From the NCBI GenBank assembly GCA_965248445.1, contig CBDFJG010000001.1, forward strand, positions 558,131 to 622,130: a stretch of DNA of 64,000 bases, given 5' to 3'. The stretch's first letter is position 1; each line of letters starts with the position of its first letter. Source of the DNA: Planctomycetota bacterium (GTDB lineage Bacteria; Planctomycetota; JAJSAM01; JAJVHW01). Below are positions 1,942 through 31,463 of the stretch, piece by piece. Position numbers and translations under genes: made by a program. The notes under the pieces are model-generated. The model worked only from the letters and a program-made list of their open reading frames with translations, searched no databases and was not told the origin of the DNA.

Positions 1942-3442
1942 TGTAACCGTTCACCCCTTGACAGCGTGTGAGCCTCAGCGTGCGAGGGGCAGCGGGACCA
2001 TGACGGGCGGGTCGGCGCCGGTGAGGTGCGCGGCGACCGAGTCGGCGAGGAAGTCGAAGACTTGGTCGCCACGGCGTCGCAGCGTGGCCGCGGCGGTCAA
2101 CACGCGCTCGGCGAAGCGGAGTCCGCGAGCGGACTGGCTTCCGAAGGAGCCCTTGCGCCAGAGCACCGCTTTGCGGACCGCGCGCTCGGCGGCGTTGTTG
2201 GTCGGACTCACGTCCTGGGTCCGCGCATAGGTGAAGAGGGCGACCACGCGGGGGCGCAGATGGTTGGCCAGAGCCGAGTCGTCGTTCGCGATCAGTCGCT
2301 CGAGCCGTCCGCGCAGCACAGCGGCTTCGCCTTGCAGCCGGTCACGGTCGCCGTGCTCACCGAAGAGCCGGTAGCTGCGCATGACCGACTGCGCGATCAT
2401 GACGCCCTTGTTGCCGAAGCGGCGATGTTCTCGCGGGCCTTCGGCCAGCGCACGGAAGGCGCGCTCGATGTGCGCCCAGCAGAGCTGGCGGCGGGCAAGT
2501 GGGTGTGACTCGTAGGCACCCATCCGGTCGCTGATCACCGTGCCACCGAAGCGCCGCCCGATCAGCCGCCCTTTCGCCTTGGCACTGCGGCGGCGATCGA
2601 TCCCGAAGGCTGTGGCGTGCTCGCTCTCCGCCGCCCACAGCCAGCACACCCGGCCCCGTTCCTTCCACGACGTCTCGTCCACGTTGGCTCGCAGCGACGT
2701 GCGGACTGCCCCGAGGGCTTCGAGGTACGACGAGTGCAGAGCGTCACTGAGCCGACGCTCACAGTCGCTGATCTTGCCCAGCGACATCTTCACACCGAAG
2801 ATCTCACCGAGCAGCCGCTGCGTCTCCCGCACGCTCACGCGGTACACGCCGCGCAGCGCGCCGGCAAGTGTGGTCAGCCGCGGACCGAAGGCCCCGGTCG
2901 GCACGCCATCGGGCAGGACCGCCGTCGTGACCGCACGACAGCGCCGGCACCGCGCCTTGTGCAGCCGGTGCTCCCGCACCGTGACGAGCACGCGCGGGAG
3001 CACCGTCACCTGGTGCCGGTACGGATCGCCGATGCCCTGCTCGAGATCGTCGTGTCCGCACGCGTCGCAGAGGTCGGGACGGTGCTCCTTGGTCTCATCG
3101 ACGTTGGACGGATCCACCAGCTCGCGCGCCGTGCCCTCATGGCCCGGCTGTCCGCCCTGCTTGCGACCGCTACGCGGCCTTCGGCCGCGACGGCGCTTGG
3201 ACCACGCCGGGTCCGACGACGGAGGCCTCGAGCTGTTGCGGGAGTCACGCTTCAGACGCGACTCGAGCTCGTCGATGCGGCGCAGATGCTTCGCTTCGCG
3301 ACGCTCCAACTCCTCGATCCAGGCCAGAAGGCCCTCGACCATCGCCCGCAGATCCTCGTCCTGCCGCTCGCCCACAACATCTTGATCGACCGATGGCCGA
3401 ACGATCTGGATCCTGGCTCGCGACGAAGGGGTGAACGGTTAC
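1942..3442 (-). mobile_element. IS66-family single-ORF insertion sequence (type A) with 17-bp terminal inverted repeats
   Basis: GTAACCGTTCACCCCTT at 1942-1958 and its reverse complement AAGGGGTGAACGGTTAC at 3426-3442 flank the transposase ORF; no clean target-site duplication seen. Confidence 0.8.
1975..3375 (-). CDS. IS66 family transposase (TnpC-like)
   Basis: 466 aa; N-terminal coiled-coil/leucine zipper (LERREAKHLRRIDELESRLKRDSRNSSRPPSSD), CxxC...CxxC zinc-finger region, DDE-region motifs (VDETSW, LCWAHIER, NNAAERAVR) typical of IS66 transposases. Confidence 0.9.
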   Translation of the reverse strand: MGERQDEDLRAMVEGLLAWIEELERREAKHLRRIDELESRLKRDSRNSSRPPSSDPAWSKRRRGRRPRSGRKQGGQPGHEGTARELVDPSNVDETKEHRPDLCDACGHDDLEQGIGDPYRHQVTVLPRVLVTVREHRLHKARCRRCRAVTTAVLPDGVPTGAFGPRLTTLAGALRGVYRVSVRETQRLLGEIFGVKMSLGKISDCERRLSDALHSSYLEALGAVRTSLRANVDETSWKERGRVCWLWAAESEHATAFGIDRRRSAKAKGRLIGRRFGGTVISDRMGAYESHPLARRQLCWAHIERAFRALAEGPREHRRFGNKGVMIAQSVMRSYRLFGEHGDRDRLQGEAAVLRGRLERLIANDDSALANHLRPRVVALFTYARTQDVSPTNNAAERAVRKAVLWRKGSFGSQSARGLRFAERVLTAAATLRRRGDQVFDFLADSVAAHLTGADPPVMVPLPLAR

Positions 3443-15449: not shown

Positions 15450-17114
15450 AATCGTTCACCAGCCGGGAATCTGAGCGGGCCGTCGTCTGTCTAAGTGCTC
15501 GTACTCGCTAGTACTTGCACCGACAGGAGCGCCGGCCCGATGACGACAGACTGTAGCCCGCAGGGGACCCTCTTCGCGGGCATCTGTGGACGCACCGCGG
15601 TGACGCGCTTCGACGCCGGTACCGTGACGAGCGACGGGGGCGTGCTGCTGCTCGAGCGGGTCGATCGTCGCATCGATCTGCTCTCGCGGTTTGCGCGCTG
15701 CTTCGGGGACCACCGGGACCCGCGTCGGGTCGAGCACACGGTCGGCCAGATGCTGCGTCAGCGGGTCTTCGGGCTGTGCGCGGGCTACGAGGATCTGGTG
15801 GACCACGACCATGTCGGCAAGGACCCGCTGTTTGCCGCGGCGTGCGGCAAGCGCGAGGGTGCTCTGGCCACGCACCCGACGCTCTCGCGGCTCGAGACCA
15901 CGCAGCTCGGCGCCACGGCACAGACGCGCTACGCCAAGATCGAGATGGACCAGGAGCGCGTGGACAGCGTGCTCAGCGACGTCTTCTGCGAGGCCATGGG
16001 GCCGGAGGATCCGGGCCTGCTCGTGCTGGACCTGGACCACTCCGACGTGCGGCTGCACGGCCGGCAGGAGGGCCGCTTCTTCCACGGCTACTACGGGCAC
16101 TACTGCTACCTGCCGCTGTACGTCTTCTGCGGCGAGCACCTCTTGCTCGCTCGGCTCCAGACCGCTGACAGAGATCCCGCGCGCGGAGTCGTGGACGAGC
16201 TCCGTGCGCTGGTCTTACGTCTGCGGCGCCGCTGGCCCCGGGCCAAGGTGCTCGTGCGCGCAGACTCGGGCTTTTGCCGCGAGGAGCTGATGGCCTGGTG
16301 CGAGGCCGCCGGCCACTTCTACCTGCTGGGCATGGCGCGCAATGAGCGCCTTGAGCGACACGTCGAAGACGCGCTCGATGAGGCCGCAGCCCGTGCCGTG
16401 CAGACCGGCCGAGCAGCCCGGGTCTTTCGCGACTTTGCCTGGACCACGCTGGGGAGCTGGAGCCAGAGGCGTCGCGTGGTCGCCAAGGCCGAGCACCTGC
16501 CGGGCGGCAAGCGCAATCCCCGCTTCGTGGTGACCAATCTGCCGCCTCGTAGCTGGAGCAGCAAGCGTCTCTACGAGCAGCTCTACTGCGCCCGGGGCGA
16601 GGCGGAGAATCGCATCAAGGAGCAGCAGCTCGAGCTCTTCGGCACCCGTCTGTCGGTGCACACGATGCAGGGCAACGCCGTGCGGATGGCCATGTCGGCC
16701 ATGGCCTACGTCCTGACCTGTGCGCTGCGACGCATCGGTCTCGCCGGCACCGAGATGGCGCGTGCGCAAGCCGGCACGATCCGCCTGCGGCTGCTCAAGA
16801 TCGGCGCGCTCGTGCGGATCACGACGCGCCGGATCTGGGTCTCGATGTCCTCGTCGTGGCCCTGGCAGCACGTCTTCGAGCGCTGCGCGCAACGACTGCT
16901 GGCATCCCCGAAGCCGACCTGACGTCCCGCCGCGCCGTCCGCCACACCACCGCCCGGCCTACGGTCTGCCCACACCGCAGAATCCGCGCCGTTTCGGCCG
17001 CTCACTCGCGTTGCCCTTGTGGCAACGACGACAGCATCCGCCCTCGCCTGGCCAAGATCTGACCCTGTGGACTCCGAAAGCACCGTCATCGCGACGTCTC
17101 GTGAACAGATGCGG
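15450..17114 (+). mobile_element. IS1380-family insertion sequence (boundaries approximate)
   Basis: Contains an intact IS1380-type transposase; terminal inverted repeats could not be identified by eye. Confidence 0.5.
15495..16922 (+). CDS. IS1380 family DDE transposase
   Basis: 475 aa (likely true start at ATG 15540); GYEDLVDHDHV and C-terminal RGEAENRIKE motifs typical of IS1380 transposases. Confidence 0.85.
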   Translation: MLVLASTCTDRSAGPMTTDCSPQGTLFAGICGRTAVTRFDAGTVTSDGGVLLLERVDRRIDLLSRFARCFGDHRDPRRVEHTVGQMLRQRVFGLCAGYEDLVDHDHVGKDPLFAAACGKREGALATHPTLSRLETTQLGATAQTRYAKIEMDQERVDSVLSDVFCEAMGPEDPGLLVLDLDHSDVRLHGRQEGRFFHGYYGHYCYLPLYVFCGEHLLLARLQTADRDPARGVVDELRALVLRLRRRWPRAKVLVRADSGFCREELMAWCEAAGHFYLLGMARNERLERHVEDALDEAAARAVQTGRAARVFRDFAWTTLGSWSQRRRVVAKAEHLPGGKRNPRFVVTNLPPRSWSSKRLYEQLYCARGEAENRIKEQQLELFGTRLSVHTMQGNAVRMAMSAMAYVLTCALRRIGLAGTEMARAQAGTIRLRLLKIGALVRITTRRIWVSMSSSWPWQHVFERCAQRLLASPKPT

Positions 17115-17386
17115 CTAAGTCCGATGAACAACGCCGCCGAGCGCGCGGTCCGCAAAGCGGTGCTCTGGCGCAAGGGCTCCTTCGGAAGCCAGTCCGCTCG
17201 CGGACTCCGCTTCGCCGAGCGCGTGTTGACCGCCGCGGCCACGCTGCGACGCCGTGGCGACCAAGTCTTCGACTTCCTCGCCGACTCGGTCGCCGCGCAC
17301 CTCACCGGCGCCGACCCGCCCGTCATGGTCCCGCTGCCCGTCGCACGCTGAGGCTCACACGCTGTCAAGGGGTGAACGGTTACCTG
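17115..17386 (+). mobile_element. 3'-terminal remnant of an IS66-A element
   Basis: Encodes the last ~75 aa of the IS66-A transposase (NNAAERAVRKAVLWRKGSFGSQSARGLRFAERVL...) followed by the terminal repeat AAGGGGTGAACGGTTAC at 17370-17386. Confidence 0.7.
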
Positions 17387-17759
17387 GACAACGGGCGAGC
17401 GAGGGTGAAGTGGGGCATGGACTATCGCGTGAAATTCGGTCCCTTCGGATGGTTGCTGGGCCAAACCATGATGAAGTTGATGATGGGCAAGATCCTCGAC
17501 GGCAATCTGAAGGGTCTCGCCAACAGAGTTCGGTCGAACCGGCCTGCGGCTTCATAAGCGGCCGGAGCGGCCCGTTTCTCAGCCCTCCGCGGCGTCCGCG
17601 CCGCTGGAGCCATCGCGGGTTCGGTGTCCTTCTCCGCGTGGTGCTTGGCAGCACACGATGACCACGCCGGCCCTTCACCACCGCAAGGCGGGCCACCGCC
17701 CCTCCCGTATGACACAGGAGGTCGCTCACTAAACTCCAAGACGCGGTGTCTCAGAATCG

Positions 17760-17790
17760 TTGACACGTCCCGGCGATCCGCGGGTAGGAT
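17760..17790 (+). promoter_or_regulatory. Candidate sigma70-like promoter upstream of the kinase gene
   Basis: TTGACA at 17760-17765 and TAGGAT at 17785-17790; the 19-bp spacer is longer than optimal. Confidence 0.2.
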
Positions 17791-17957
17791 CGCGGAGATT
17801 CAGGTGAGAGGTCTGGGCCGAGAGGGGTTCATGCACCAACGCCACCCGGCAGCGGGTCGCGTAACTGGGCGACACTCTGGATCTCCTGCTCGGCATGGGC
17901 GGTCTCCTTGGAGAGTCGAATCTGCGGCGTGCGGTCCGCCGAAGCAAGGAAGGGTTC

Positions 17958-20120
17958 ATGCACCAACGCCACCTAAAGAGAGTAGGGCAACGTCTCGGGA
18001 AGTATCAGCTTCGCAAATTAATCGGGGCGGGTAGCACGGGGGCGATTTACAGAGCTTATGACGAGTCGCTTAGCCGAGAGGTCGCGATCAAAATATTGCT
18101 CAACGAGCGTGCGGAGAATAAGCTATACTTGGAACGCTTTCGATCCGAAGCCAAAGCGGCCGGCCAGCTTAGGGACCAGCATGTCGTTGCGGTCTATGAA
18201 CTCGGAGAAGATCGCGACACACATTTCATTGCGATGGAATTGGTCGATGGCGGGAGTGTCGCTGACGAACTCAAAAAGCGGGGCGCATTCCCGGTCACCG
18301 AAGCCACCCACATCACGGCAGATGCCTGCCGCGGCTTGAGTGCCGCTCATCAGCTTCGACTGGTGCATCGCGACATTAAACCGGAAAACCTTCTGAGAAC
18401 GAAGAACCAGCTAGTAAAGATTGCGGACTTTGGCCTGTCAAAGGGCGATTTCCGGAAGCACAACCAACTCACGATGACCGGCGAAATTCTCGGCACACCT
18501 TACTTCATGAGCCCGGAGCAATGCGAAGGTGCACCGGTAGACGAGCGAAGCGACATTTATTCGCTTGGGGCGACATACTACATGCTGCTCACGGGAGCTT
18601 ACCCCTATTCCGAAGCAACGACAATAATGCAAGTCATGCATTTGCATTGTTCGGACAAGGAGCTCGATCCCTGTCTTGTCCACGCGAAACTTCCTGATCA
18701 ATGCTCTGCAATCGTAAAAAGGGCGACTGCAAGGAGTCCGGACGACCGATACCAAACGGTCGATGACATGCTTGTCGATCTCGAGGAGCTTCTAGCCGAT
18801 CAGGACCGGATCTCCCAAAACACAAAGAAACGTGGAGAGACCAAGAGGAAGCGACAAGTTGTGATGGTATCGATCATTGTGGCCGTGGTGGTTGCCGGCG
18901 CCACCTTGCTCATGTTGAATGCGAATAGAACAACAGGAGAGGCAAGGCATGGCGAACGTTCTCCAGCCAGCCGCCGATTTTCCGGTGCGCTGTCACAAGG
19001 AGTCACCGCGGACACCGTTACCTTTGGCACGACGACGGCCTACTCCGGCACCGCCGGTGATCTTGGCCGCAACATAGTATACGGGATCAGAGCTTGTTTC
19101 AAGGCAGTTAATAAACAGGGAGGAATACACGGGCGGAAGCTGGAGCTTGTTGTGCTCGACGACGGATACGAGCCAGTTAGAGCATTGAACAATATACGGA
19201 TACTCTTTGAAGAGAAACAAATATTTGCAACGATCGGCAATGTTGGAACGCCGACGGCAAAGGCGATCCTCCCCTACACTATTGAGAATCGCTACCTGTT
19301 GTTCGCGCCATTCTCCGGTGCCAAGCTACTTCGGCGGGACCCACCGGACCGATACGTTTTTAATTTTCGCGCGAGCTACACCGAGGAGATTGCCGCCATG
19401 ATGCAATACCTCGTCGAATTGCGTAAGATTGATCCGCAAAAAATCGCGGTCTTTGTCCAGGACGATTCGTTTGGAGACAGTGGTTTTGATGCGGTCGTTC
19501 AAGCATTGAGCGAGCATGAAATTGAGGGGAAGGATGTATTGCGGGTTAAGTATCGACGCAACAGTGTCGAGGTGGAAGATGCCGTGAAGGAGATCGTGCG
19601 CGAAATTGAGAACGTCGATGCTATCGTCATGATTTCGACGTATGAGCCAACTGCCAAATTTGTCAGATCGGTCAAAGACAAGAGTAAGAAAGAAATACAT
19701 TTCGCAGCGGTGTCGTTTGTTGGCAGTCGCGGCTTGGCCGAAGAATTTCGCGAGATGGGCGCACGCTCACGCTATGGTGAGGGCGTCATTGTTACCCAGG
19801 TCGTGCCGCACTATGATGCGAAGGCTAAGGGGGTGAATCGCTATCGACAGTTACTGCGGGAACATTGCCCAGAAGCGCGGCCAAGTTTTGCTTCGTTGGA
19901 GGGTTTTATTGCAGCGGAGTGCCTTGTCAAAGGATTGGAAGCCGTGGGGCCGAACCTGACTACGGAACGTCTTGTCGATGCGCTTGAGAACATCAAGGAT
20001 TTGGATCTCGGAGTGGGGCCGCTCCTCAGCTTTGGACGATTTCGGCATCAGGCTTCAATGAAGATCTGGGGGACAATTCTAGACGACGAAGGCAACTACA
20101 AGAGTCTGAAGCTTGAATAA
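17958..20120 (+). CDS. Receptor-type Ser/Thr protein kinase fused to a periplasmic binding-protein (type 1, LivK-like) sensor domain
   Basis: 720 aa; kinase motifs GAGSTGAIYRA, AIK, HRDIKPENLL, DFGLS, SPEQ; transmembrane helix VVMVSIIVAVVVAGATLLML; C-terminal half resembles branched-chain amino-acid binding proteins. GC content is visibly lower than flanking DNA. Confidence 0.85.
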   Translation: MHQRHLKRVGQRLGKYQLRKLIGAGSTGAIYRAYDESLSREVAIKILLNERAENKLYLERFRSEAKAAGQLRDQHVVAVYELGEDRDTHFIAMELVDGGSVADELKKRGAFPVTEATHITADACRGLSAAHQLRLVHRDIKPENLLRTKNQLVKIADFGLSKGDFRKHNQLTMTGEILGTPYFMSPEQCEGAPVDERSDIYSLGATYYMLLTGAYPYSEATTIMQVMHLHCSDKELDPCLVHAKLPDQCSAIVKRATARSPDDRYQTVDDMLVDLEELLADQDRISQNTKKRGETKRKRQVVMVSIIVAVVVAGATLLMLNANRTTGEARHGERSPASRRFSGALSQGVTADTVTFGTTTAYSGTAGDLGRNIVYGIRACFKAVNKQGGIHGRKLELVVLDDGYEPVRALNNIRILFEEKQIFATIGNVGTPTAKAILPYTIENRYLLFAPFSGAKLLRRDPPDRYVFNFRASYTEEIAAMMQYLVELRKIDPQKIAVFVQDDSFGDSGFDAVVQALSEHEIEGKDVLRVKYRRNSVEVEDAVKEIVREIENVDAIVMISTYEPTAKFVRSVKDKSKKEIHFAAVSFVGSRGLAEEFREMGARSRYGEGVIVTQVVPHYDAKAKGVNRYRQLLREHCPEARPSFASLEGFIAAECLVKGLEAVGPNLTTERLVDALENIKDLDLGVGPLLSFGRFRHQASMKIWGTILDDEGNYKSLKLE

Positions 20121-20267
20121 CGCAAAAACCGAACTCATCGAACGCACGAGCTTCCCGACGAAGTCCGCGGGTTCGGCTTCGAGTTGCTCGCGGTCGCCGT
20201 GCGTCTTGTACTCGCGCACACCCCGCATCAGTGCCTGCGCGATGTCGAGTCCGGCCTCACCGAAGCA
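20120..20267 (-). pseudogene. Short remnant of an IS110-family transposase
   Basis: Minus-strand translation GYACFGEAGLDIAQALMRGVREYKTHGDREQLEAEPADFV parallels the IS110 copy at 24057-24842; abuts the IS1595 end. Confidence 0.3.
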
Positions 20268-20947
20268 TGCATATCCGGTTAATGACCGCGCCCACTACAT
20301 CTTGTGCTAGAAGGGCAGCGGGCTTGCAGGCTCGTCGGCGTAGACCTGTTCGTACGTGCGCGGCGGCGTCTTCGCCGCGATGCCGAGGACCGTCTGGAAC
20401 GCTGCCTGCGGCGTGCGTCTCCTGTTGAACCGGAACGTGAACTCGTCGAGATACCGCTGCAGGTGCTTCTCCGAGACCCGGCCGTGGTGCGTGCCTACGA
20501 GCCAGGTCTTGAGGTTGGAGAAGACCAGGTGGTGCAGGTGCCTCAGGACGTCCGCCTGCGCCGCGCCCATCATCGTGGACTCGATCCCGTGCTCGTAGCC
20601 GAGTTTCTCGACTGCGTCGTAGGTCTCGTGGCCGTCGGTCACGACGAGCGCCCCACGCTCGATGCTGTCCTTGACGAACGCCAGCAGGTGCGGCTTCGAT
20701 GAGGCCGGCACGTGGCGCAGCCGGATGCGTCCGGGCTGTGTGCCTCTCTTCGTCGGACGCACCTCGACCGCGCCGACCACGACGGCCTTGTCTGCCGCGG
20801 TGCGCTCCTCTCGGCCTCGAAACGGCGCTCCGATCAGCGCCTCGTCGACCTCGACGACGCCGAACAACTGCGCGCGCTCCGGCGCGACCATCGCAGATCG
20901 CAGTTTCTGGAGCATCTGGTACGCGGTCTCGTAGCGGGTCAGACCGA
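20268..20947 (-). mobile_element. IS1595-family element, 5'-truncated copy
   Basis: Terminal repeat GCATGCATATCCGGTTAATGACC at 20268-20290; transposase C-terminal 202 aa (ORF 20307..20915) near-identical to the full copy at 24838-25878; identity ends at about 20947. Confidence 0.75.
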
Positions 20948-22270
20948 GCTGTCGCTGGAGCCAGGGTCGAGCGGAACCTGTTCAGCGGCCAGCGGTCCGA
21001 CGACCCCGGCGTCGACATCGACGGGCCGAACGCCGTGGTGCAAAAGAACCGGTTCGTCTACGGCCTCGGCGTCGGCATCCAGGTCGATGCCGAGAACGGT
21101 GGAACGGCCACGGTCTGCAAGAATACGGTCGATTCGATGGCGGGCGACTCCTACATCCTGGTGGAGAACGCGGCGGGCCCCAGGGTCCTGAAGAACGTCT
21201 TCAAGAACGCTTACATTGGCGATAGCTACGACCACGTCATCGACCTCCAGTCCTGTGACGACGCCCTAGTCTCCGGCAACAAGATACTGACGATGAACTA
21301 CTCCATCGAGAGGGGGATCAACGTCGCGGGCGAACGGGCGACGGTAACGAAGAACTGCATCGAGAACGTGAATGGCTACTACTACGACCTGTATTGCATC
21401 TACGTGCAGGGGAACGACGCCGCGATCAGCCGCAACAAGATCCGGATCTGCGGCGCCGGGGAGGAATCCGACACGTATGCGATCTACGTTTCCGGGAACA
21501 CAGCGAGCGTCACGCGAAACGCGATCAACGACATAGCTGGTGGCGGCGACGAGATCTTCGGGGTCTATATCGACGGCGACGACGGCTCCATCGACGGCAA
21601 CCGGATCAGCCACCTGAACGAAGAGTACACGTACGCCATCTACTACACCGGCCACAGGGCCCGGATCGTCAAGAACAGGATCGCGCACGTGATGGCTGAC
21701 GGGGACATCTACGTCCGCGGCGATGACTTCCTGATCGAGAACAACACCGTCAGGGACGGAGCGTACTACTGCACCGGTATCTACACGCGCGGATCCGCCA
21801 CGATGCTCGGGGCGGCGGTGATCCAGCGGAACTCACTGAGCTTTCTCGGGTCGGACGGCATCGACCACGGAGGCAACGGGGTGGTCATCCGCGACAACAA
21901 GCTGAACCACCTGGCGGGGTTCGGGGTGATTGCGGACGGAAACGACAACGTGCTGATCGGTAACAGTGTGTCGGGCACGTACACGGCCGCTTTCCACATC
22001 GATGGCAACGACAACAGCGTGACGGGTTGTGCCGCCAGGGACAGCGACGGAGACGGGTTCAGGATCCAGGGCAACAACAACACGCTGGAGAACTGCACGG
22101 CGTCCAACTGCGCCGCCGAGGGCCTCGACAACAGCGGCACCGACACCAGCGCGATGAACTGCCGGTTCACCGGCTCCCGAATCGACTACGCCGGCAACAA
22201 CAACATGATCGACGACACCGGAACGACGTTCGGGACCGGAAGTGCCGCGACCGCGCCCGAGATCAACTGA
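20948..22270 (+). pseudogene. Right-handed parallel beta-helix repeat protein, 5' end replaced by the IS1595 fragment
   Basis: Repeats of the form hydrophobic-x-x-N-x-hydrophobic and G-N-x-hydrophobic (VTKNCIENV, ISRNKIRI, VTRNAIND, IVKNRIAHV, VIRDNKLNHL); the N-terminal region and signal peptide are missing upstream of 20948. Confidence 0.65.
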
Positions 22271-22394: not shown

Positions 22395-23926
22395 GTACCC
22401 GTTCAGGGTATGACGATCCGCGGCCTCAGCGCGTGATCGGGAGCGCGACGAGAGCCGGCGGCGAGCGGTTGTGCGCGAGTGCCGCGCTGACGTCTGCGAG
22501 GTAATCGAAGACGCTCTCGCCACGCTGGCGGAGCGTGGCGGTGACGGTCAGGATGCGCTCGACGAAGCGGAGTCCGCGCTCGCTCTGACTTCCGTGCGTT
22601 GCGCGTCTCCACAGGACCGGCTTGCGCACCGCGCGCTCAGCGGCGTTGTTCGTCGGGGAGACGCCAGGGACGTCGGCGAAGGTCCACAGAGCCTCCGCTC
22701 GGTCGAGCAGATGCCGAGTCGTTCCGCGTACTCGGCGGTGCTTGCTGTCTGCGCCGCGCACGAGCAGCGTCAGGAGTCGGTCCCATGTGAGACGCAGCTC
22801 ACGCCGCATGCGGTCGCGGTCCCCGTGCTCGCCGAAGTGACGCTGAGCTCGCATGACAGCCTGGGCGAGACGCACGGCCTGCTTGCCGAAGCGCCGGCCG
22901 CCGCGCGAGCCCTCGGCCAGCGCTCGAAAGTCCCTCTCGAGATGCGCCCAGCAGATCTGGCGGCGCTCGGTGGGATGCTGGTCGTAAGCGCCCATACGGT
23001 CGGTCACGAGGACGCCCCTGAAGCGCTTGCCCACGAGTCGCCGCATGGCCTTGGCGCTCCTGCGCCGATCGATACGATGGACCGTGGCGTGCTCACAGAC
23101 CGCGCTCCACAGCCAATGCAGCGTGCCACGACGCGACCACGGTGTCTCGTCTACATAGGCGACGCTGCTCGTGCGTACGGCCCCGAGGGCCTCGATGTGC
23201 GCTGAGGAGATGGCTCCCGACACCCGCTCCTCGATCGCACTGACCGTGCCCGGTGACATCGAGACGCCGATGACGTCACGCAACAGACGACTGGTCTCGC
23301 GCCGCGACAGGCGGAAGACGCCGACCAGAGCCGCGGTGAGCGCACAGAGTCGCGGGCCGAAGGGACTCGCCGTCACACCGCTTGGCAGCGAGGCAGTGGA
23401 CGTGGCGCCACAGTCCGTGCACCGTGCCCGGTGCAACCGGTGCTCGGTCACCTGGATCAGCCGTGGCGGGACCTCGAAGACCTGCTGGCGTGTCGGGGCG
23501 CGATCGATCGGGACGAGCACGTCGCTCCCACACGCGCTGCACTCGCGCGGGCGGTGGTCCTCTACGCCATCGACCTCGGACTCGTCCACGAGCTTGCGCG
23601 TCGCCCCTTTGTGGCCGGGCTGCGCACCCTGGCGCTTGTCCGACGGCGGCTTGCGCCGCCGCCGCTTCTTGGACCACGACGGATCCGAGGACGGTGGGCG
23701 CGAGGAGGTGCGGGAGTCCCGGCGAAGACGGCTCTCGAGATCGTCGATCCGTGCCGCCTGCCGCTCGATCACCTCCGCCTGCTCGGCAATCGTCTCGTCC
23801 CGAGCGTCCAGACGACGGGTCAGGCGCTCGACCAGATCACGCAGCTCATCGGTGCCCACATCCGATTCATCGACCGAACGGAAAGCGATCTGGATCCGAG
23901 CTCAGAACCAAGGGCTGAACGGGTAC
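22395..23926 (-). mobile_element. IS66-family single-ORF element (type B), copy 1, with 8-bp target-site duplication
   Basis: Terminal repeats GTACCCGTTCAGGGT (22395-) and AGGGCTGAACGGGTAC (-23926); flanked by direct repeats CGCCTGCG at 22387-22394 and 23927-23934. Confidence 0.9.
22426..23859 (-). CDS. IS66 family transposase
   Basis: 477 aa; identical protein to ORF 29963..31396; coiled-coil N-terminus, zinc-finger cysteines, NNAAERAVRKPVLWRR motif. Confidence 0.9.
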   Translation of the reverse strand: MGTDELRDLVERLTRRLDARDETIAEQAEVIERQAARIDDLESRLRRDSRTSSRPPSSDPSWSKKRRRRKPPSDKRQGAQPGHKGATRKLVDESEVDGVEDHRPRECSACGSDVLVPIDRAPTRQQVFEVPPRLIQVTEHRLHRARCTDCGATSTASLPSGVTASPFGPRLCALTAALVGVFRLSRRETSRLLRDVIGVSMSPGTVSAIEERVSGAISSAHIEALGAVRTSSVAYVDETPWSRRGTLHWLWSAVCEHATVHRIDRRRSAKAMRRLVGKRFRGVLVTDRMGAYDQHPTERRQICWAHLERDFRALAEGSRGGRRFGKQAVRLAQAVMRAQRHFGEHGDRDRMRRELRLTWDRLLTLLVRGADSKHRRVRGTTRHLLDRAEALWTFADVPGVSPTNNAAERAVRKPVLWRRATHGSQSERGLRFVERILTVTATLRQRGESVFDYLADVSAALAHNRSPPALVALPITR

Positions 23927-24837
23927 CGCCTGCGCGCGGGGACCGCGCTCGGCGGGCCGCGAGGACAGGTTGGGTGGTGCGACGCCTTCGCCTGTCGGCT
24001 CGGGCATGAATCCGGGGCGGCGGAGCGCGCGCGAGTTCGCTCGGAAGACTCGTGGCTCATGCGGGCACCTGCGTGGCCGACGTGGCCACGGGTGTGGGCC
24101 GGGGGACGAAGGGCTGTTTGTTTCGAGCCACCCAGTGGACGGCGACCAGGAGCTTTCGCATGGACGCGACGAGGGCGACCTTCGGGAGCTTGCCCTGGGA
24201 CCGAAGCCGTTCGTAGAAGGCGCGCAGCCAGGGGTTCCTGCGCACCGCGGTCAGGACGGGCATCCACAGGGCCCTGCGCAGCCGGGCGTGCCCGATGCGG
24301 GTGATGGCGGCGCGTTGGCCCTGGTTGCGTCCGGACTGCTTGAGTGCCGGGACGACCCCGATGTATGACGCCAGCGCCTTGGCGTCGCGGAAACGAGTGA
24401 TGTCGCCCAGCTCCGCGACGAGCCGCGCGGCGGTCTGTGGCCCGATGCCGTCGATGGTCGTGAGGAGCTTGCCGACCTCGTGGTGCTCCAGGGTTCCCCC
24501 GATCAGCTTCTCCAAGTCGCGAAGGCGCCGGCGCAGCAAGTCCAGATCCTCGCAGGCGTACCGGACCTGAGTGCGATAGGCCTCGGCGTGGTGGCGGCCC
24601 ACGGACGACTTGGCTGCACGGACCAGGTCTTGGGCAAGCTGCCGCCCGACTCGGTGACGTCCGTCGTAACGGAGCGCGGCGAGTCGCTTGACCGAGACAC
24701 CCACAAAGGCCTGCGCGGTGGGATGGCGGTTGAGCAGCGCCGTGGCGAGTTCGCTGTCGAGGGTGCGGACGTGGCGTGTGAACTCCGGGAAACCCAGGTC
24801 CACCAAGCGGTGAAGCCGGCGGACCCGGTCTCCAAAG

Positions 24838-25878
24838 CATGCATATCCGGTTGACGACCGTGACCCCAAGGGGTAGTGTCTCGGACGCATGCCGAAGCCG
24901 GGCTACCCTCGCAACATCGTGGAGTTCACGGAGCAGTTCGCGACGGAAGAGCAGTGCCTCGAGTACCTCGTGCAGTGTCGTTGGCCCGACGGGTTCCGCT
25001 GCCGCCGGTGCGGCGGCAAGAAGTACTGGCCCCGTCCAGATCGAAGAGCGATGCGGTGCGTGGGCTGCGACCTGATCACGTCGGTCACCGCGGGCACAGT
25101 GCTGCATCGCAGCCGGCTGCCGCTGAAGTCCTGGATGTGGGCCGCGTACTTGATGACGACGGACAAGCGGGGCGTCTCTGCGCTCGCACTCCAGCGACAG
25201 CTCGGTCTGACCCGCTACGAGACCGCGTACCAGATGCTCCAGAAACTGCGATCTGCGATGGTCGCGCCGGAGCGCGCGCAGTTGTTCGGCGTCGTCGAGG
25301 TCGACGAGGCGCTGATCGGAGCGCCGTTTCGAGGCCGAGAGGAGCGCACCGCGGCAGACAAGGCCGTCGTGGTCGGCGCGGTCGAGGTGCGTCCGACGAA
25401 GAGAGGCACACAGCCCGGACGCATCCGGCTGCGCCACGTGCCGGCCTCATCGAAGCCGCACCTGCTGGCGTTCGTCAAGGACAGCATCGAGCGTGGGGCG
25501 CTCGTCGTGACCGACGGCCACGAGACCTACGACGCAGTCGAGAAACTCGGCTACGAGCACGGGATCGAGTCCACGATGATGGGCGCGGCGCAGGCGGACG
25601 TCCTGAGGCACCTGCACCTGGTCTTCTCCAACCTCAAGACCTGGCTCGTAGGCACGCACCACGGCCGGGTCTCGAAGAAGCACCTGCAGCGGTATCTCGA
25701 CGAGTTCACGTTCCGGTTCAACAGGAGACGCACGCCGCAGGCAGCGTTCCAGACGGTCCTCGGCATCGCGGCGAAGACGCCGCCGCACGTACGAACAGGT
25801 CTACGCCGACGAGCCTGCAAGCCCGCTGCCCTTCTAGCACAAGATGTAGTGGGCGCGGTCATTAACCGGATATGCATG
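24838..25878 (+). mobile_element. IS1595-family element, full-length copy with 8-bp target-site duplication
   Basis: 22-bp imperfect terminal repeats CATGCATATCCGGTTGACGACC / GGTCATTAACCGGATATGCATG; direct repeat CTCCAAAG at 24830-24837 and 25879-25886. Confidence 0.85.
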
Positions 25879-25908
25879 CTCCAAAGTCCTGGACCACGCG
25901 ATCCCTGA
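24889..25908 (+). CDS. IS1595 family transposase (C-terminus frameshifted relative to the truncated copy)
   Basis: N-terminal zinc-ribbon CRWPDGFRCRRCGG...CVGCD; DDE-type core; a 2-bp difference near 25786 gives a different C-terminal tail that reads through the terminal repeat. Confidence 0.8.
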   Translation: MPKPGYPRNIVEFTEQFATEEQCLEYLVQCRWPDGFRCRRCGGKKYWPRPDRRAMRCVGCDLITSVTAGTVLHRSRLPLKSWMWAAYLMTTDKRGVSALALQRQLGLTRYETAYQMLQKLRSAMVAPERAQLFGVVEVDEALIGAPFRGREERTAADKAVVVGAVEVRPTKRGTQPGRIRLRHVPASSKPHLLAFVKDSIERGALVVTDGHETYDAVEKLGYEHGIESTMMGAAQADVLRHLHLVFSNLKTWLVGTHHGRVSKKHLQRYLDEFTFRFNRRRTPQAAFQTVLGIAAKTPPHVRTGLRRRACKPAALLAQDVVGAVINRICMLQSPGPRDP

Positions 25909-26630: not shown

Positions 26631-27674
26631 ATGGCAAAGGCTACACGTTTCGTGATCGGGATGGACCTGGGCGACCGCGTGGTGCCTGTGTGTGTGCTGG
26701 ACCGCAAGACGGGCGAGATCGTGGGCGAAGGGCGCGTCGCGACGACGCGTGCTCGCCTGACGGAGTTCCTCGGCGAGATCGAGCGCTCGAAGGTGGTGAT
26801 GGAGAGCGGGACGCACTCGCCGTGGATCAGCCGCCTCGCCGAGGGTCTTGGTCACGACGTCATCGTGGCCGATGCGCGTCGGCTGCGCGCGGTGTGGGAC
26901 TCGCCCAAGAAGAGTGACCGCCGCGACGCGCTGGTTCTGGCGCAACTGGGGGCCGGGCACCCAGGGCTCCTTCATCCGGTGTCTCACCGGAGCGAGCGCG
27001 CACAGACCCACATGGTCGTGCTCCGAGCGCGCGAGCGTGTGGTCGACGCGCGTACGAAGTTGGTCAATGCCGCGCGGGGCTCGGTGAAGTCGCTCGGGTA
27101 CCGATTGCCCGCTTGCTCCGCTCCGAGCTTCCATCGCAAGGCACGCGAGGCGGTGCCGGAAACCCTCGTGGACGCCCTGGCCCCGTTGTTCGACGCGATC
27201 GCAGCGTTGACGGAGAGCATCGCGCGCTACGACCGCGAAGTCGAGCGTCTCGGCCGCGACGCGTATCCGGTGACACGACGCCTTCGCGAGGTACCCGGCT
27301 GCGGTCCCGTCACCGCGCTCGCCTACGTGCTCGTCGTCCACGACCCAGAGCGCTTCTCGCGCAATCGCGACGTGGGCGCGTACGTCGGTCTCGTCCCGCG
27401 CCAGGACCAGTCGGGCAAGATCGATCGCCAACTCAGGATCACGAAGTGCGGCGACCGGATGCTCCGCCGGCTGCTCGTGCAGTGCGCGCACTACGTGCTC
27501 GGACCACACGGGCCCGACAGCGACCTGAGACGCTGGGGTCTGGAGCTGGCGCAACGGGGCGGGAAGAACGCGAAGAAACGGGCGACCGTCGCGGTCGCCC
27601 GCAAGCTCGCCGTGCTCTTCCACGCTCTGTGGATGAAGGACCGCGCGTACGAGCCGCTCGCTCGAGCGGCGTGA
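26631..27674 (+). CDS. IS110 family transposase (second, different member)
   Basis: 347 aa; N-terminal RFVIGMDLGDR DEDD-type domain; C-terminal LREVPGCGPVTALAYV helix-hairpin-helix region typical of IS110/IS1111. Confidence 0.85.
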   Translation: MAKATRFVIGMDLGDRVVPVCVLDRKTGEIVGEGRVATTRARLTEFLGEIERSKVVMESGTHSPWISRLAEGLGHDVIVADARRLRAVWDSPKKSDRRDALVLAQLGAGHPGLLHPVSHRSERAQTHMVVLRARERVVDARTKLVNAARGSVKSLGYRLPACSAPSFHRKAREAVPETLVDALAPLFDAIAALTESIARYDREVERLGRDAYPVTRRLREVPGCGPVTALAYVLVVHDPERFSRNRDVGAYVGLVPRQDQSGKIDRQLRITKCGDRMLRRLLVQCAHYVLGPHGPDSDLRRWGLELAQRGGKNAKKRATVAVARKLAVLFHALWMKDRAYEPLARAA

Positions 27675-27971: not shown

Positions 27972-29502
27972 TGGACGTTCAGCCATTGTGTCTGAGCCCG
28001 TATCCAGATCTCCGAGCGGGTTGACGATGAACACCATGTGGGCAAGGACGACCTCCGCGAGTTGATCGAGCGGCAGTCGCGGCGTCTCGCTGCCCAGGAC
28101 GAGAAGATCGCTGAGCAGCAGCGTGTCATCGAGGGGCAGCAGGAGGAGATCGCAGATCTTCGGAACCGCCTGAAGCGGGATTCGCGCAACTCGTCGCGGC
28201 CGCCGTCCTCGGACGCGCCGTGGTCCAAGCGTCGGCGCCGGCGAAAGCCCCCGTCGGACAAGAAGCAGGGCGGCCAGCTGGGTCACGAGGGCAGGACGCG
28301 GCGGCTGGTGGACGAGGACGAGGTCGATGACGTCGAGGACCACCGCCCGAGCGAGTGCTCGAGCTGCGGGGGCAAGGAGCTCGAGCCGCTGGCGCGTCGT
28401 CCGCACCGCCACCAGGTGTGGGAGATCCCGCGGGTGCTGGTCCCGGTGACCGAGCATCGTCTTCACCGTGCGCGCTGCCGGGAGTGCGGCGAGGTGGTGG
28501 CGGCGGCGTTGCCCGAGGGCGTCACCAAGAGCGCCTTGGGCCCGCGGCTGAGCGCGCTTGCGGCATCCTTGAGCGGCGTCTACCGCGTGAGCCGCCGCGA
28601 GGTCTCCCGGCTTCTCTCGGAGGTCTTCGGTGTGACGATGTCGCCCGGCACCGTGAGCGCCATCGAGGGACGGCTCGGTGAAGGGCTCTCGCTGCCGCAC
28701 ATCCAGGCGCTTGGCGCGGTGCGCACGAGCTCGGTGGCCAACGTGGACGAGACGCCGTGGAGCGAACGTGGCGAGCTGCGCTGGCTCTGGACCGCGGTGG
28801 CCGAAGGCGTTACCGCGCACCGCATCGACTCCCGCCGCAACGCGGCCGCGATGAAGCGCCTGATCGGCCGGCGCTATCGCGGGGTGCTGGTGACCGACCG
28901 CATGGGCGCCTACGACAAGCACCCGCTCAAGAGGCGCCAGCTCTGCTGGGCCCACTTGGAGCGCGACTTCCGCGCTCTCGCCGAAGGGCCGCGGGGCGGA
29001 TGGGTCTTCGGCAAGAAGGGCGTCGAGATCGCGGGGGCCGTGATGCGAGTGCACCGCGGCTTCCGCGGCCACGGCGACCGCACCCGGCTCGCGCGCCAGC
29101 TCCGCGATCCCAAGCGCCGGCTCCGCCGCCTGCTCGAACGCGGGGCACGCGCCAAGCACTGTCCGGTCAGGGGCATGTCCAAGCACCTGCTGGCGCGCTT
29201 CGATGCGCTCTTCACCTTCGCCGAGGTCCCCGACGTCGACCCTACGAACAACGCCGCCGAACGCGCGGTCCGCAAGCCGGTGCTCTGGCGCAAGGGCTGC
29301 TACGGCAGCCAGTCCGCTCGCGGCGAACGCTTCGTCGAGCGAGTGCTCACGGCCACCGCGACGCTGCGCCGCCGGGGGGGCAAGTCTTCGACTTCCTCGC
29401 CGACTCGCTCGCCGCGCACGTCTCCGGCGCCGACCCACCCGTCCTCGTCAGCCTGCCGATCCCGCGCTGAGGATCAGGGCCCCCGAAGGGCTGAACGGGT
29501 AC
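27972..29502 (+). mobile_element. IS66-family element (type C) with degenerate left end
   Basis: Right terminal repeat GAAGGGCTGAACGGGTAC at 29485-29502; left end only partially matches (ACGTTCAGCC near 27972); boundaries approximate. Confidence 0.55.
28038..29470 (+). pseudogene. IS66 family transposase with frameshift in a G-homopolymer
   Basis: Protein matches IS66 transposases until a 7-G run at 29374-29380; the expected C-terminus (GGQVFDFLADSLAAHVSGADPPVLVSLPIPR) continues in the +1 frame (ORF 28757..29470). Confidence 0.8.
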
Positions 29503-29931: not shown

Positions 29932-31463
29932 GTACCCGTTCAGGGTATGACGATCCGCGGCCTCAGCGCGTGATCGGGAGCGCGACGAGAGCCGGCGGCG
30001 AGCGGTTGTGCGCGAGTGCCGCGCTGACGTCTGCGAGGTAATCGAAGACGCTCTCGCCACGCTGGCGGAGCGTGGCGGTGACGGTCAGGATGCGCTCGAC
30101 GAAGCGGAGTCCGCGCTCGCTCTGACTTCCGTGCGTTGCGCGTCTCCACAGGACCGGCTTGCGCACCGCGCGCTCAGCGGCGTTGTTCGTCGGGGAGACG
30201 CCAGGGACGTCGGCGAAGGTCCACAGAGCCTCCGCTCGGTCGAGCAGATGCCGAGTCGTTCCGCGTACTCGGCGGTGCTTGCTGTCTGCGCCGCGCACGA
30301 GCAGCGTCAGGAGTCGGTCCCATGTGAGACGCAGCTCACGCCGCATGCGGTCGCGGTCCCCGTGCTCGCCGAAGTGACGCTGAGCTCGCATGACAGCCTG
30401 GGCGAGACGCACGGCCTGCTTGCCGAAGCGCCGGCCGCCGCGCGAGCCCTCGGCCAGCGCTCGAAAGTCCCTCTCGAGATGCGCCCAGCAGATCTGGCGG
30501 CGCTCGGTGGGATGCTGGTCGTAAGCGCCCATACGGTCGGTCACGAGGACGCCCCTGAAGCGCTTGCCCACGAGTCGCCGCATGGCCTTGGCGCTCCTGC
30601 GCCGATCGATACGATGGACCGTGGCGTGCTCACAGACCGCGCTCCACAGCCAATGCAGCGTGCCACGACGCGACCACGGTGTCTCGTCTACATAGGCGAC
30701 GCTGCTCGTGCGTACGGCCCCGAGGGCCTCGATGTGCGCTGAGGAGATGGCTCCCGACACCCGCTCCTCGATCGCACTGACCGTGCCCGGTGACATCGAG
30801 ACGCCGATGACGTCACGCAACAGACGACTGGTCTCGCGCCGCGACAGGCGGAAGACGCCGACCAGAGCCGCGGTGAGCGCACAGAGTCGCGGGCCGAAGG
30901 GACTCGCCGTCACACCGCTTGGCAGCGAGGCAGTGGACGTGGCGCCACAGTCCGTGCACCGTGCCCGGTGCAACCGGTGCTCGGTCACCTGGATCAGCCG
31001 TGGCGGGACCTCGAAGACCTGCTGGCGTGTCGGGGCGCGATCGATCGGGACGAGCACGTCGCTCCCACACGCGCTGCACTCGCGCGGGCGGTGGTCCTCT
31101 ACGCCATCGACCTCGGACTCGTCCACGAGCTTGCGCGTCGCCCCTTTGTGGCCGGGCTGCGCACCCTGGCGCTTGTCCGACGGCGGCTTGCGCCGCCGCC
31201 GCTTCTTGGACCACGACGGATCCGAGGACGGTGGGCGCGAGGAGGTGCGGGAGTCCCGGCGAAGACGGCTCTCGAGATCGTCGATCCGTGCCGCCTGCCG
31301 CTCGATCACCTCCGCCTGCTCGGCAATCGTCTCGTCCCGAGCGTCCAGACGACGGGTCAGGCGCTCGACCAGATCACGCAGCTCATCGGTGCCCACATCC
31401 GATTCATCGACCGAACGGAAAGCGATCTGGATCCGAGCTCAGAACCAAGGGCTGAACGGGTAC
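29932..31463 (-). mobile_element. IS66-family element (type B), copy 2, no target-site duplication
   Basis: Same terminal repeats and same internal ORF set as copy 1; flanks CCATCCAC and ACGCGCGC do not match; right end abuts a truncated IS1380 transposase. Confidence 0.85.
29963..31396 (-). CDS. IS66 family transposase
   Basis: 477 aa, identical to ORF 22426..23859. Confidence 0.9.
   Translation of the reverse strand: MGTDELRDLVERLTRRLDARDETIAEQAEVIERQAARIDDLESRLRRDSRTSSRPPSSDPSWSKKRRRRKPPSDKRQGAQPGHKGATRKLVDESEVDGVEDHRPRECSACGSDVLVPIDRAPTRQQVFEVPPRLIQVTEHRLHRARCTDCGATSTASLPSGVTASPFGPRLCALTAALVGVFRLSRRETSRLLRDVIGVSMSPGTVSAIEERVSGAISSAHIEALGAVRTSSVAYVDETPWSRRGTLHWLWSAVCEHATVHRIDRRRSAKAMRRLVGKRFRGVLVTDRMGAYDQHPTERRQICWAHLERDFRALAEGSRGGRRFGKQAVRLAQAVMRAQRHFGEHGDRDRMRRELRLTWDRLLTLLVRGADSKHRRVRGTTRHLLDRAEALWTFADVPGVSPTNNAAERAVRKPVLWRRATHGSQSERGLRFVERILTVTATLRQRGESVFDYLADVSAALAHNRSPPALVALPITR

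Follow-up and report, generated by a model that had tools for sequence, protein, structure and literature searches.

Amino-acid sensing by the GlnH-GlnX-PknG system of Corynebacterium and Mycobacterium is performed by three separate proteins (PMC9769921). The receptor kinase described here is predicted to share one feature with this system, namely that a Hanks-type kinase is informed of a small molecule outside the cell by a periplasmic binding protein. However, that system divides binding, membrane transduction and kinase activity among separate proteins, while in our protein the parts are fused into a single-pass chain. The resemblance is one of logic and not of homology. GlnH belongs to a different binding-protein class from the Peripla_BP_6 domain found here.

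Much closer in domain order, which is the same as in our protein, are kinases of Gimesia fumaroli, G. alba, G. aquarii, Thalassoglobus polymorphus and Symmachiella dynata. These planctomycete proteins are annotated as ‘ABC transporter substrate-binding protein’ or ‘PknB’. The kinase studied here is co-linear with them over 99-100% of the query, keeps the invariant residues of both the kinase and the binding domain, and like them stands alone without conserved neighbours. It differs from them in having no 25-90-residue N-terminal tail and in starting inside a locally duplicated 22-mer. A literature search for the kinase plus Peripla_BP_6 architecture found no study, a kinase atlas preprint does not mention it, and we know of no family member that has been studied experimentally. 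For the duplicated start, the nearest described process is short-patch double illegitimate recombination, which was described in laboratory Acinetobacter baylyi and in which patches of 3 to ~100 bp are derived from intragenomic single strands, either nearby or ectopic (bioRxiv 10.1101/2023.11.22.568220).

The features of the locus are collected in Table 1; the window denotes the whole 64,000-nucleotide stretch of DNA that was analysed. The explanation that best accounts for the locus as a whole, to which we assign a probability of about 0.6, is the horizontal acquisition of a single gene, with the second repeat copy (S2) acting as a patch that restored its start.

Table 1. Features of the kinase locus and its flanks, in window coordinates.
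Feature	Position	Strand	Evidence or remarks
IS1380-type transposase gene (DDE_Tnp_1_4)	15495..16922	+	Pfam PF13701, E 9e-142; GC3 0.87, host-like
IS66-family 3'-terminal fragment	17118..17383	+	99% identical to 1943-2208, inverted
SRPBCC (Polyketide_cyc2-like), C-terminal 57 codons	17384..17557	+	Pfam E 0.004; cut by IS66 end
Spacer	17558..17821		GC flat over the three codon phases, no codon periodicity
Repeat copy 1 (S1)	17822..17846	+	SD-like GAGGGG (purine-rich), followed by ATG 17831 and four further codons
Intervening high-GC 102 nt	17847..17948		Between S1 and S2; in-frame ATG 17895
Repeat copy 2 (S2)	17949..17973	+	SD-like sequence, ATG 17958, kinase codons 2-5 (MHQRH)
Receptor Ser/Thr kinase gene, 720 aa	17958..20120	+	Pfam, full-length homologues, TM segment, PDB 4kv7, GC3, CAI
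High-GC remnant GEAGLDIAQALMRGVREYKTHGDREQLEAEPADFVGKLVRS	20121..20263	-	Host-like codon periodicity, phase GC 0.83/0.40/0.75; cut by IS1595 end
IS1595-family copy, truncated	20264..20960	-	Transposase 3' part and terminal inverted repeat; DDE_Tnp_IS1595, E 2e-31

The kinase ORF is intact. The Pfam Pkinase domain covers residues 16-266 (profile positions 1-253 of 263, E 4e-46) and Peripla_BP_6 (PF13458) covers residues 353-706 (profile positions 1-336 of 343, E 2e-48). One hydrophobic segment at residues 301-320, with KKRGETKRKRQ just before it, provides the transmembrane helix. The Hanks-type catalytic motifs GAGSTG, VAIK, the α-C Glu, HRDIKPEN, DFG and MSPE are present, and every column that is invariant over a 14-member alignment is kept, including the VAIK Lys, HRD, DFG and SPE. 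By these features the protein is an intact Hanks-type Ser/Thr kinase with a full catalytic domain, for which phosphotransfer is predicted. The best 120 relatives (E <= 5e-188) combine a kinase with Peripla_BP_6, nearly all at 99-100% query coverage, and all taxon-bearing source names among them are Planctomycetota. Identity to full-length family members was 43-62%, with the best relative at 62%. A co-linear kinase, a single transmembrane helix and Peripla_BP_6 were found throughout, which places our protein within this planctomycete family; the architecture is common in the phylum. No conserved synteny was found among the kinase homologues, and a single-gene transfer fits because these genes stand alone.

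The closest solved structure was PDB 4kv7, a ‘probable leucine/isoleucine/valine-binding protein’, with which the periplasmic domain aligned over 363 residues (E 1e-73); the type-I ‘Venus flytrap’ binding fold is therefore secure. We take 4kv7 to be a structural-genomics entry from Rhodopirellula baltica, and no literature citing it was found. The solved relatives that follow are far more distant (E 1e-26 to 1e-13). The names of the nearest ones are generic (substrate-binding, putative Leu/Ile/Val-binding) and identify no ligand, and the NCBIfam branched-chain amino-acid binding-protein model scored 41 bits, far below its cut-off of 477. ‘Amino-acid sensing’ would thus be a family label only, and annotation of the protein as an ‘amino-acid sensor’ is not yet justified.

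A lower GC content and a different codon flavour had been ascribed to the gene in an earlier note on this DNA, which took them as consistent with horizontal acquisition. The compositional claim was borne out by sliding-window GC, GC3 and CAI. Sliding-window GC is 0.66-0.70 in the surroundings and goes down to 0.50-0.55 over 17.97-20.13 kb; we took 17974 to about 20130 as the foreign low-GC part of the locus. The kinase ORF (17958-20120) has a GC of 0.528, a GC3 of 0.583 and a CAI of 0.31 against the host reference, compared with a GC3 of 0.83-0.91 and a CAI of 0.64-0.75 in six host genes; the local IS transposase genes have a GC3 of 0.82-0.87. The composition is therefore mismatched to its own genome, whereas other family members match theirs, as their GC3 tracks the genome in which they reside over a range of 0.49-0.90 (Thalassoglobus 0.49, Gimesia 0.50, a 69% GC genome, L079, 0.90). 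Since family members adopt the local GC3, the low GC observed here indicates recent transfer and not a family trait. Taken together with the IS-dense island in which the gene lies, the deviation in GC3 and CAI and this family control mean that horizontal acquisition of the kinase gene is well supported.

The converse reading is a native, vertically inherited gene whose odd composition is a property of the family. It would agree with the planctomycete host, as the family is typical of that phylum, and with the closest relative, whose kinase gene also lies a bit under its own neighbours in GC3 (0.635 vs 0.73-0.75). However, GC3, a synonymous measure, is about 0.3 under that of the host genes, the family member in the other 69% GC genome shows no such depression, and the flanks consist of IS debris and gene fragments. 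We consider vertical inheritance scarcely credible. The host ArgG was nearest to proteins of ‘Planctomycetes bacterium’ MAGs.

IS fragments had also been reported on both sides of the gene. These are indeed present, IS66 on the left and IS1595 on the right, but neither abuts the foreign DNA, as non-IS sequence of 590 nt (17384-17973) and about 143 nt (20121-20263) lies between. An ORF at 17019-17351 matches the C-terminus of DDE_Tnp_IS66 (Pfam), and the IS1595 copy is 99-100% identical, inverted, to 25189-25880 in three adjoining stretches. As IS66 and IS1595 are two different families, nothing shows IS-mediated delivery. A composite transposon was rejected on the same ground, on the truncation of both elements and on the non-IS sequence between each of them and the foreign DNA. 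Neither terminal inverted repeats nor target duplications were found at the borders of the foreign DNA, and inspection by eye downstream of the kinase gene revealed no attC-like site that would suit an integron cassette, nor was an integrase gene noticed. The IS1380-type transposase gene upstream of the kinase is part of the same IS-dense island.

The remaining flanking sequence consists of remnants. The SRPBCC fragment shares 59-89% amino acid identity with most of 38 metagenome loci, with homology starting exactly at 17384, and is taken as coding because its third codon positions vary most. Its relatives were used to look for the ancestral neighbourhood, but the DNA downstream of their genes was unrelated to the window, and the window does not contain the gene's N-terminal half. 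Between the two repeat copies, 17847-17948 displays codon-like periodicity in the register of the kinase frame or its antisense (phase GC about 0.77/0.45/0.75). Protein searches and Pfam detected no homologues of this segment or of the 20121-20263 remnant, and the former has no other copy in the window. The kinase might interrupt a single minus-strand host gene; the two flank remnants share a phase relative to the kinase frame, for which the chance at random is one in three. A word-indexed search with the concatenated minus-strand flank peptides gave no match, an exhaustive HMMER search with the 47-aa minus-strand ORF as query yielded a single marginal match (E 6e-4), broken into six short stretches, that was taken as spurious, and Pfam at E <= 10 returned nothing on the flank remnants.

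A whole-window scan showed that the 22-mer GGGTTCATGCACCAACGCCACC occurs exactly twice, on the plus strand at 17825-17846 and 17952-17973. No further copy was found in the window with up to 3 mismatches tolerated, and 100 shuffles yielded 0 matches. If one mismatch is allowed, the repeat lengthens to 25 nt, GA(G/A)GGGTTCATGCACCAACGCCACC, at 17822-17846 and 17949-17973. As the spacing of 127 nt equals 3x42+1, the ATG of S1 and that of S2 are out of frame; the coordinates and frame given in the earlier note were therefore accurate. The ATG of S1 opens a 67-codon out-of-frame ORF (17831-18034), and on the minus strand S1 forms the stop of a 47-codon ORF (17829-17972). The repeat does not behave as a target-site duplication, which is typically 2-14 bp and surrounds an element with inverted repeats or a transposase; here 22-25 nt enclose 102-105 nt without inverted termini or an ORF of a known family. 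A tRNA-fragment or att-core origin of S1 and S2 was also rejected, as ARAGORN and Rfam were blank there and T-arm pairing failed by eye.

The 3' end of S2 coincides with the left border of the foreign DNA. Nucleotide homology to the closest relative spans only 17977-20101 (76% and 70% identity), beginning 4 nt past the 3' end of S2 and stopping at the stop codon, so that the homology break falls at 17974-17977; none was found in either flank. The import was therefore one ORF without its native promoter and without the 25-90-codon N-terminal tail. This is in line with the protein alignment, in which at least about 25 residues precede the [WR][IV]GxxLGKY motif in 13 of the 13 aligned homologues, compared with 8 in this ORF when translated from ATG 17958. 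A start at ATG 17895 would give 29 residues, with the extra sequence being non-homologous at the DNA level. Because the tail is unconserved in sequence, the short N-terminus marks a truncated member of the family and not a non-member. The ‘recombination scar’ proposed earlier fits these breakpoints, and in our reading the repeat is a scar left at the junction, probably in the form of a short templated patch.

Other readings of the start deserve consideration. Given the unconserved family tail, the gene is possibly a natural short-N-terminus variant with S2 as its own start, and the true kinase start could be upstream, given the codon periodicity of the 102 nt in the kinase register and the presence of ATG 17895; alternative translation starts are likewise possible. 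A fuller version of the first of these holds that S2 is the native ribosome-binding site and start of an untruncated gene, and that S1 is a later copy placed 127 nt upstream at integration, at the expense of the 3' end of a gene that resided there on the minus strand. Conservation within the family is lowest in the tail, a weak resemblance in codons to the closest relative may extend into the last ~6 nt of S2 (CAC CTA vs CAT TCA), and on the minus strand S1 holds the last codons as well as the stop of the 47-codon ORF, all of which would suit such a history. The uniform presence of the longer tail in the aligned homologues argues against it, as do the fact that S2, those ~6 nt aside, has no detectable similarity to the 5' region of the relative and the fine GC profile, in which the shift occurs at the 3' end of S2 and not at its 5' end. 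We judge this account as a whole unlikely.

Under the favoured reading, that of an acquired gene with S2 as a start-restoring patch, a planctomycete with a genome of ~69% GC would have received, from a donor with a GC of roughly 50-55%, a ~2.15-kb piece (17974 to about 20130) holding one ORF, which came to lie in an island that is dense in IS elements and heavily rearranged. Neither the native promoter nor the variable 25-90-residue tail would have come with it. S2 would supply a purine run resembling an SD sequence, followed by an ATG and four codons that share the reading frame of the truncated kinase; as this start is in frame, the catalytic domain is still translatable whole. S2 may have been templated by S1 during or soon after formation of the junction, with microhomology-mediated template switching and short-patch illegitimate recombination as candidate mechanisms, and the patch was presumably retained because it restored a start codon. 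A 22-25-nt copy derived from 127 nt away falls inside the 3 to ~100 bp range of the process in A. baylyi; here, however, there is only weak microhomology where the patch begins and ends (GA-GGG at its left edge, possibly CCAC at its right edge). The specific proposal that a headless import was rescued by a 22-25-nt patch from 127 nt upstream, bringing both a ribosome-binding site and an in-frame ATG, is tentative and we regard it as rather unlikely.

The same repeat might instead be a functional duplication, forming either twin initiation regions with an overlapping upstream ORF (17831-18034) that would tune translation of the kinase, or twin 22-bp protein-binding sites that would control transcription. 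An SD-like purine run lies 3-8 nt ahead of the ATG in both S1 and S2, the last 77 nt of the upstream ORF extend past the kinase start, the 127-nt spacing amounts to about 12.1 helical turns, and an imperfect 10-bp palindrome, GTtCATGcAC, lies inside the repeat. Yet the upstream ORF lacks a coding-type GC3 and has an Arg-rich composition of the wrong-frame type, the predicted fold of the leader RNA is no more stable than those of shuffled sequences (z = -0.24), and the only adjacent sequence is IS debris, with no regulator gene. In addition, no exact match to the 22-mer was found in metagenome contigs or viral contigs, so that no conservation points to function. We find a functional role for the duplication distinctly unlikely. 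A consensus promoter and terminator scan upstream and downstream of the kinase gene called nothing, and it passed over a weak promoter-like TTGACA-N19-TAGGAT at 17761-17791 that was seen by eye; expression of the gene is therefore hypothetical.

Searches for other carriers returned little. A scan of genome contigs with the kinase recovered only kinase-domain relatives at <=39% identity, and no plasmid carried the full gene, the only plasmid matches being to the binding domain at <=47% identity. A look-up of the exact kinase product gave no other record, with one cluster member on one contig. Searches of genome contigs and metagenome loci found no sister genome or empty site, and for this reason we infer, rather than observe, what the site looked like before insertion and which of S1 and S2 was copied from the other. 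The solitary record, the MAG-type nature of the assembly and the position of an exact 22-mer right at the compositional border could also be explained by an assembly chimera, in which a shared sequence the size of a k-mer led to the joining of reads from a lower-GC planctomycete present in the same sample. Such a chimera would require two joins, but the right border has no repeat. In the 654-kb contig, several IS copies are kept apart although they are 99-100% identical and share stretches of 300-430 nt without any difference, which suggests long reads; S1 has high-GC sequence on both sides and S2 on its left, unlike a simple graph misjoin; and the kinase ORF is intact and in frame. We consider a chimera very unlikely.

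If translated, the kinase would most likely act like other single-pass receptor kinases, with ligand-driven closure of the periplasmic binding domain altering dimerisation and trans-autophosphorylation of the activation loop. The transfer itself is tidy but ordinary, as the family is widespread and no new kind of system is involved. It nevertheless offers a clear example of a signalling gene that moved as nothing more than an ORF between planctomycetes whose base compositions differ greatly, and it suggests that a truncated import may regain a start codon through a tiny local duplication. If the patch proposal is true, this would be a natural case of short-patch illegitimate recombination yielding a working translation start for an acquired receptor kinase, and the older copy, S1, would now head an overlapping out-of-frame upstream ORF. 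Analyses of this genome should mark the kinase gene as a recent acquisition, and the family, which has thousands of members and one ectodomain of solved structure, is a target for ligand discovery.

Sliding-window analysis showed that GC content falls from 0.66–0.70 to 0.50–0.55 across about 17.97–20.13 kb, the region of the receptor kinase ORF. This ORF has a GC of 0.528, a GC3 of 0.583 and a CAI of 0.31 (reference, six host genes), compared with a GC3 of 0.83–0.91 and a CAI of 0.64–0.75 for the six host genes; the nearby IS transposase genes have a GC3 of 0.82–0.87. The homologues in Gimesia fumaroli (GC3 0.50), Thalassoglobus polymorphus (0.49) and a 69% GC genome (0.90) agree in each case with their own neighbour genes; a low GC is thus not inherent in the kinase family. 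A family member with a long history in a high-GC genome attains the GC3 of its host, and the window copy has not. The earlier note had described lower GC and deviant codon usage and proposed horizontal acquisition; the compositional check found a strong deviation, and recent acquisition of the gene therefore stands and is well supported.

The product contains a complete protein kinase domain (residues 16–266) and a complete Peripla_BP_6 domain (residues 353–706) by Pfam, separated by one hydrophobic segment (residues 301–320). It follows the sequence KKRGETKRKRQ, which makes the kinase the cytoplasmic part and the binding domain the external one. A protein search yielded relatives in the thousands; the best 120 all combine a kinase with Peripla_BP_6, align almost without exception over 99–100% of the query, and come from Planctomycetota wherever the source name bears a taxon (Gimesia, Thalassoglobus, Symmachiella, Planctomycetaceae, Pirellulales and Gemmataceae). 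Their identity is 43–52%, apart from one relative at 62%, P0002, which is encoded on a metagenome contig of 6.4 Mb. An alignment of 14 sequences showed that the window protein retains all invariant columns, including the Gly-rich loop, the VAIK lysine, HRD...N, DFG, SPE and many binding-domain positions. The window argininosuccinate synthase is closest to proteins of uncultured "Planctomycetes bacterium" MAGs (67–78% identity), and host and kinase family therefore share one phylum. Neighbour genes differed in each of the four relatives' loci examined; the kinase gene is a self-contained, stand-alone receptor gene. The P0002 gene (locus L001, 10001–12274) has a GC3 of 0.635, lower than the 0.73–0.75 of its neighbours, and a transposase fragment lies ~9.7 kb upstream of it. 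This sub-branch of the family may have moved between planctomycete genomes more than once.

In single-pass Hanks receptor kinases, ligand binding by the ectodomain changes the dimer and leads to trans-autophosphorylation. By analogy, the two lobes of the periplasmic domain would close on a bound ligand; the geometry of the dimer would then shift across the membrane, which would favour trans-autophosphorylation in the activation loop, with its threonines in LTMTGEILGTPYFMSPE. Among solved structures, 4kv7 gives the best match to the periplasmic domain (E 1e-73); the other solved relatives are far more distant and generically named. The label of amino-acid sensor given previously is unproven: the branched-chain amino-acid binding-protein model matched far below its cut-off, and the solved structures closest to the domain do not come from defined amino-acid binders. 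This binding-domain subfamily also (46.8% identity over 359 aa) occurs in a 492-aa protein annotated "ABC transporter substrate-binding protein" on Bradyrhizobium sp. Ash2021 plasmid NZ_CP100605.1 (locus L081, 6593–8071), behind a non-kinase N-terminal region of ~135 aa. No ABC permease genes were found near this plasmid gene. The different fusion and the absent permease hint at a role of the subfamily as a sensing module and not as part of a transporter.

The nucleotide match to the P0002 gene was confined to 17977–20101, with 76% identity in the kinase half and 70% in the binding half. At the 5' end good identity begins at AGAGAGTAGGGCAACG, with none upstream, and the 3' similarity ends at the stop codon. 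Both limits coincide with the GC shift; in essence, then, a single ORF was imported, and it lacks its native promoter. The foreign DNA has neither inverted nor direct repeats at its borders. All 13 aligned homologues carry an N-terminal tail of about 25–90 residues before [WR][IV]GxxLGKY, compared with 8 in the window ORF. The gene is a further member, truncated at its 5' end, of an established and widespread family that is not known to have been studied experimentally.

The kinase gene lies in an IS-dense stretch of about 15.4–31.5 kb. Several of the IS copies there and at 1943–3400 are 99–100% identical, implying recent IS activity; these are ordinary IS-rich surroundings, an IS graveyard. 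The gene had been described as bounded on both sides by IS fragments, which is correct in that IS66 lies to the left and IS1595 to the right, but the immediate flanks are non-IS sequence. As the two fragments belong to different families, a composite transposon was rejected. On the left, the IS66 end truncates an SRPBCC gene at 17383/17384, leaving its last 57 codons, and these are followed by a 264-nt spacer showing no codon periodicity, the upstream repeat copy (S1), 102 nt and the downstream copy (S2). On the right, a 143-nt segment that the IS1595 end interrupts at 20264 shows host-type periodicity on its minus strand. The 102-nt and 143-nt pieces share a coding-like GC periodicity in the register of a 47-codon antisense ORF, and protein-level and Pfam searches found no homologue of either; as a conjecture, they could be two parts of one resident gene on the minus strand that the insertion broke up.

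The SRPBCC remnant has relatives on metagenome contigs of 31% to 68% GC, with 76–92% nucleotide identity over about 170 nt that ends at the stop codon. Its third codon positions vary most (identity 0.67 versus 0.88–0.92), therefore it is very conserved coding sequence and not RNA; its GC3 (0.76) is lower than that of host genes. The beta-helix gene beside the truncated IS1595 is host-like by its GC3 and CAI despite its low GC, which results from Asn/Asp/Ile/Tyr-rich repeats and not from foreign origin. This leaves the kinase ORF as the one gene in the neighbourhood that looks truly foreign. At the island edge, the kinase N-lobe and the 45-nt repeat may be the 5' end of a kinase gene that was duplicated or rearranged.

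Features of the kinase region and its surroundings (window coordinates)
Feature	Position	Strand	Remark
IS66 copy	1943-3400		outside main stretch
ORF, 681 aa	12766-14811	+	His/Tyr/Gly-rich middle; extremely Arg/Thr/Pro-rich repetitive C-terminal half; no Pfam match; AT skew up to 0.5 over 14.0-14.8 kb
IS1380-type element	15495-16922		in IS-dense stretch
IS66 fragment	17118-17383		
SRPBCC/Polyketide_cyc2-like remnant	17384-17557	+	relatives at loci L040-L077
22-mer copies	17825-17846, 17952-17973	+	25 nt with one mismatch: 17822-17846 (S1), 17949-17973 (S2)
47-codon ORF	17829-17972	-	antisense to kinase frame, in register with it
Kinase ORF	17958-20120	+	
IS1595, truncated	20264-20960		
Parallel beta-helix (NosD-like) gene	20960-22270	+	GC 0.62, GC3 0.89, CAI 0.69; 5' end adjoins truncated IS1595
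IS66, two near-identical full copies	22395-23900, 29932-31400		
IS110 copies	24057-24890, 26631-27674		
IS1595, full	24821-25895		inside truncated IS110 gene; TCCAAA duplication
IS66-like stretch, additional	27976-29480		
Second beta-helix gene	32209-33360	-	
Host-type Ser/Thr kinase N-lobe, truncated	33583-34146	-	high GC; 29% identical to imported kinase
45-nt direct repeat	34088-34132, 34684-34728		87% identity, 596 nt apart; overlies N-lobe Gly-loop region
tRNA-Arg(ACG)	34809-34885	-	adjoins truncated N-lobe; beyond IS-dense stretch

The duplicated start region was present as had been reported: the 22-mer GGGTTCATGCACCAACGCCACC occurs exactly twice, no third copy exists elsewhere in the 64-kb window with up to three mismatches, and no shuffled sequence gave a match. 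It can be extended three bases leftward, and an exact search did not find it in metagenome and viral collections. The spacing of 127 nt equals 3 × 42 + 1, and the ATGs at 17831 and 17958 are therefore out of frame. Folding analysis of the leader RNA revealed no unusual structure. A tRNA fragment was rejected as the identity of the repeat by tRNA and RNA-family scans, and a transposon target duplication was rejected since the repeat is too long and the DNA it flanks too featureless. A junction scar fits best, as S2 ends 4 nt before the family homology starts, in agreement with the recombination scar suggested earlier, and the repeat is best read as such a scar that now supplies the kinase start codon.

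From S2 the kinase ORF takes a stretch rich in purines, its ATG and codons 2–5. S1 is flanked by high-GC sequence on both sides and carries, on the minus strand, the final codons and stop of the antisense ORF. We infer both the direction of copying, from S1 to S2, and its mechanism; the main rival reverses the polarity, with S2 native and S1 the copy. Under copying from S1, a short patch would have been taken from a template 127 nt away while an illegitimate junction was made or repaired. Candidate routes are microhomology-mediated template switching and short-patch double illegitimate recombination, which has literature precedent for patches of 3 to ~100 bp from intragenomic single strands. 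The patch brings an ATG into frame with a kinase that is intact but for its missing head, and selection for expression would explain why it was kept. We put the chance that a headless import was rescued by a templated patch that created its start codon at roughly one in four. Such a rescue, if true, would be of moderate interest.
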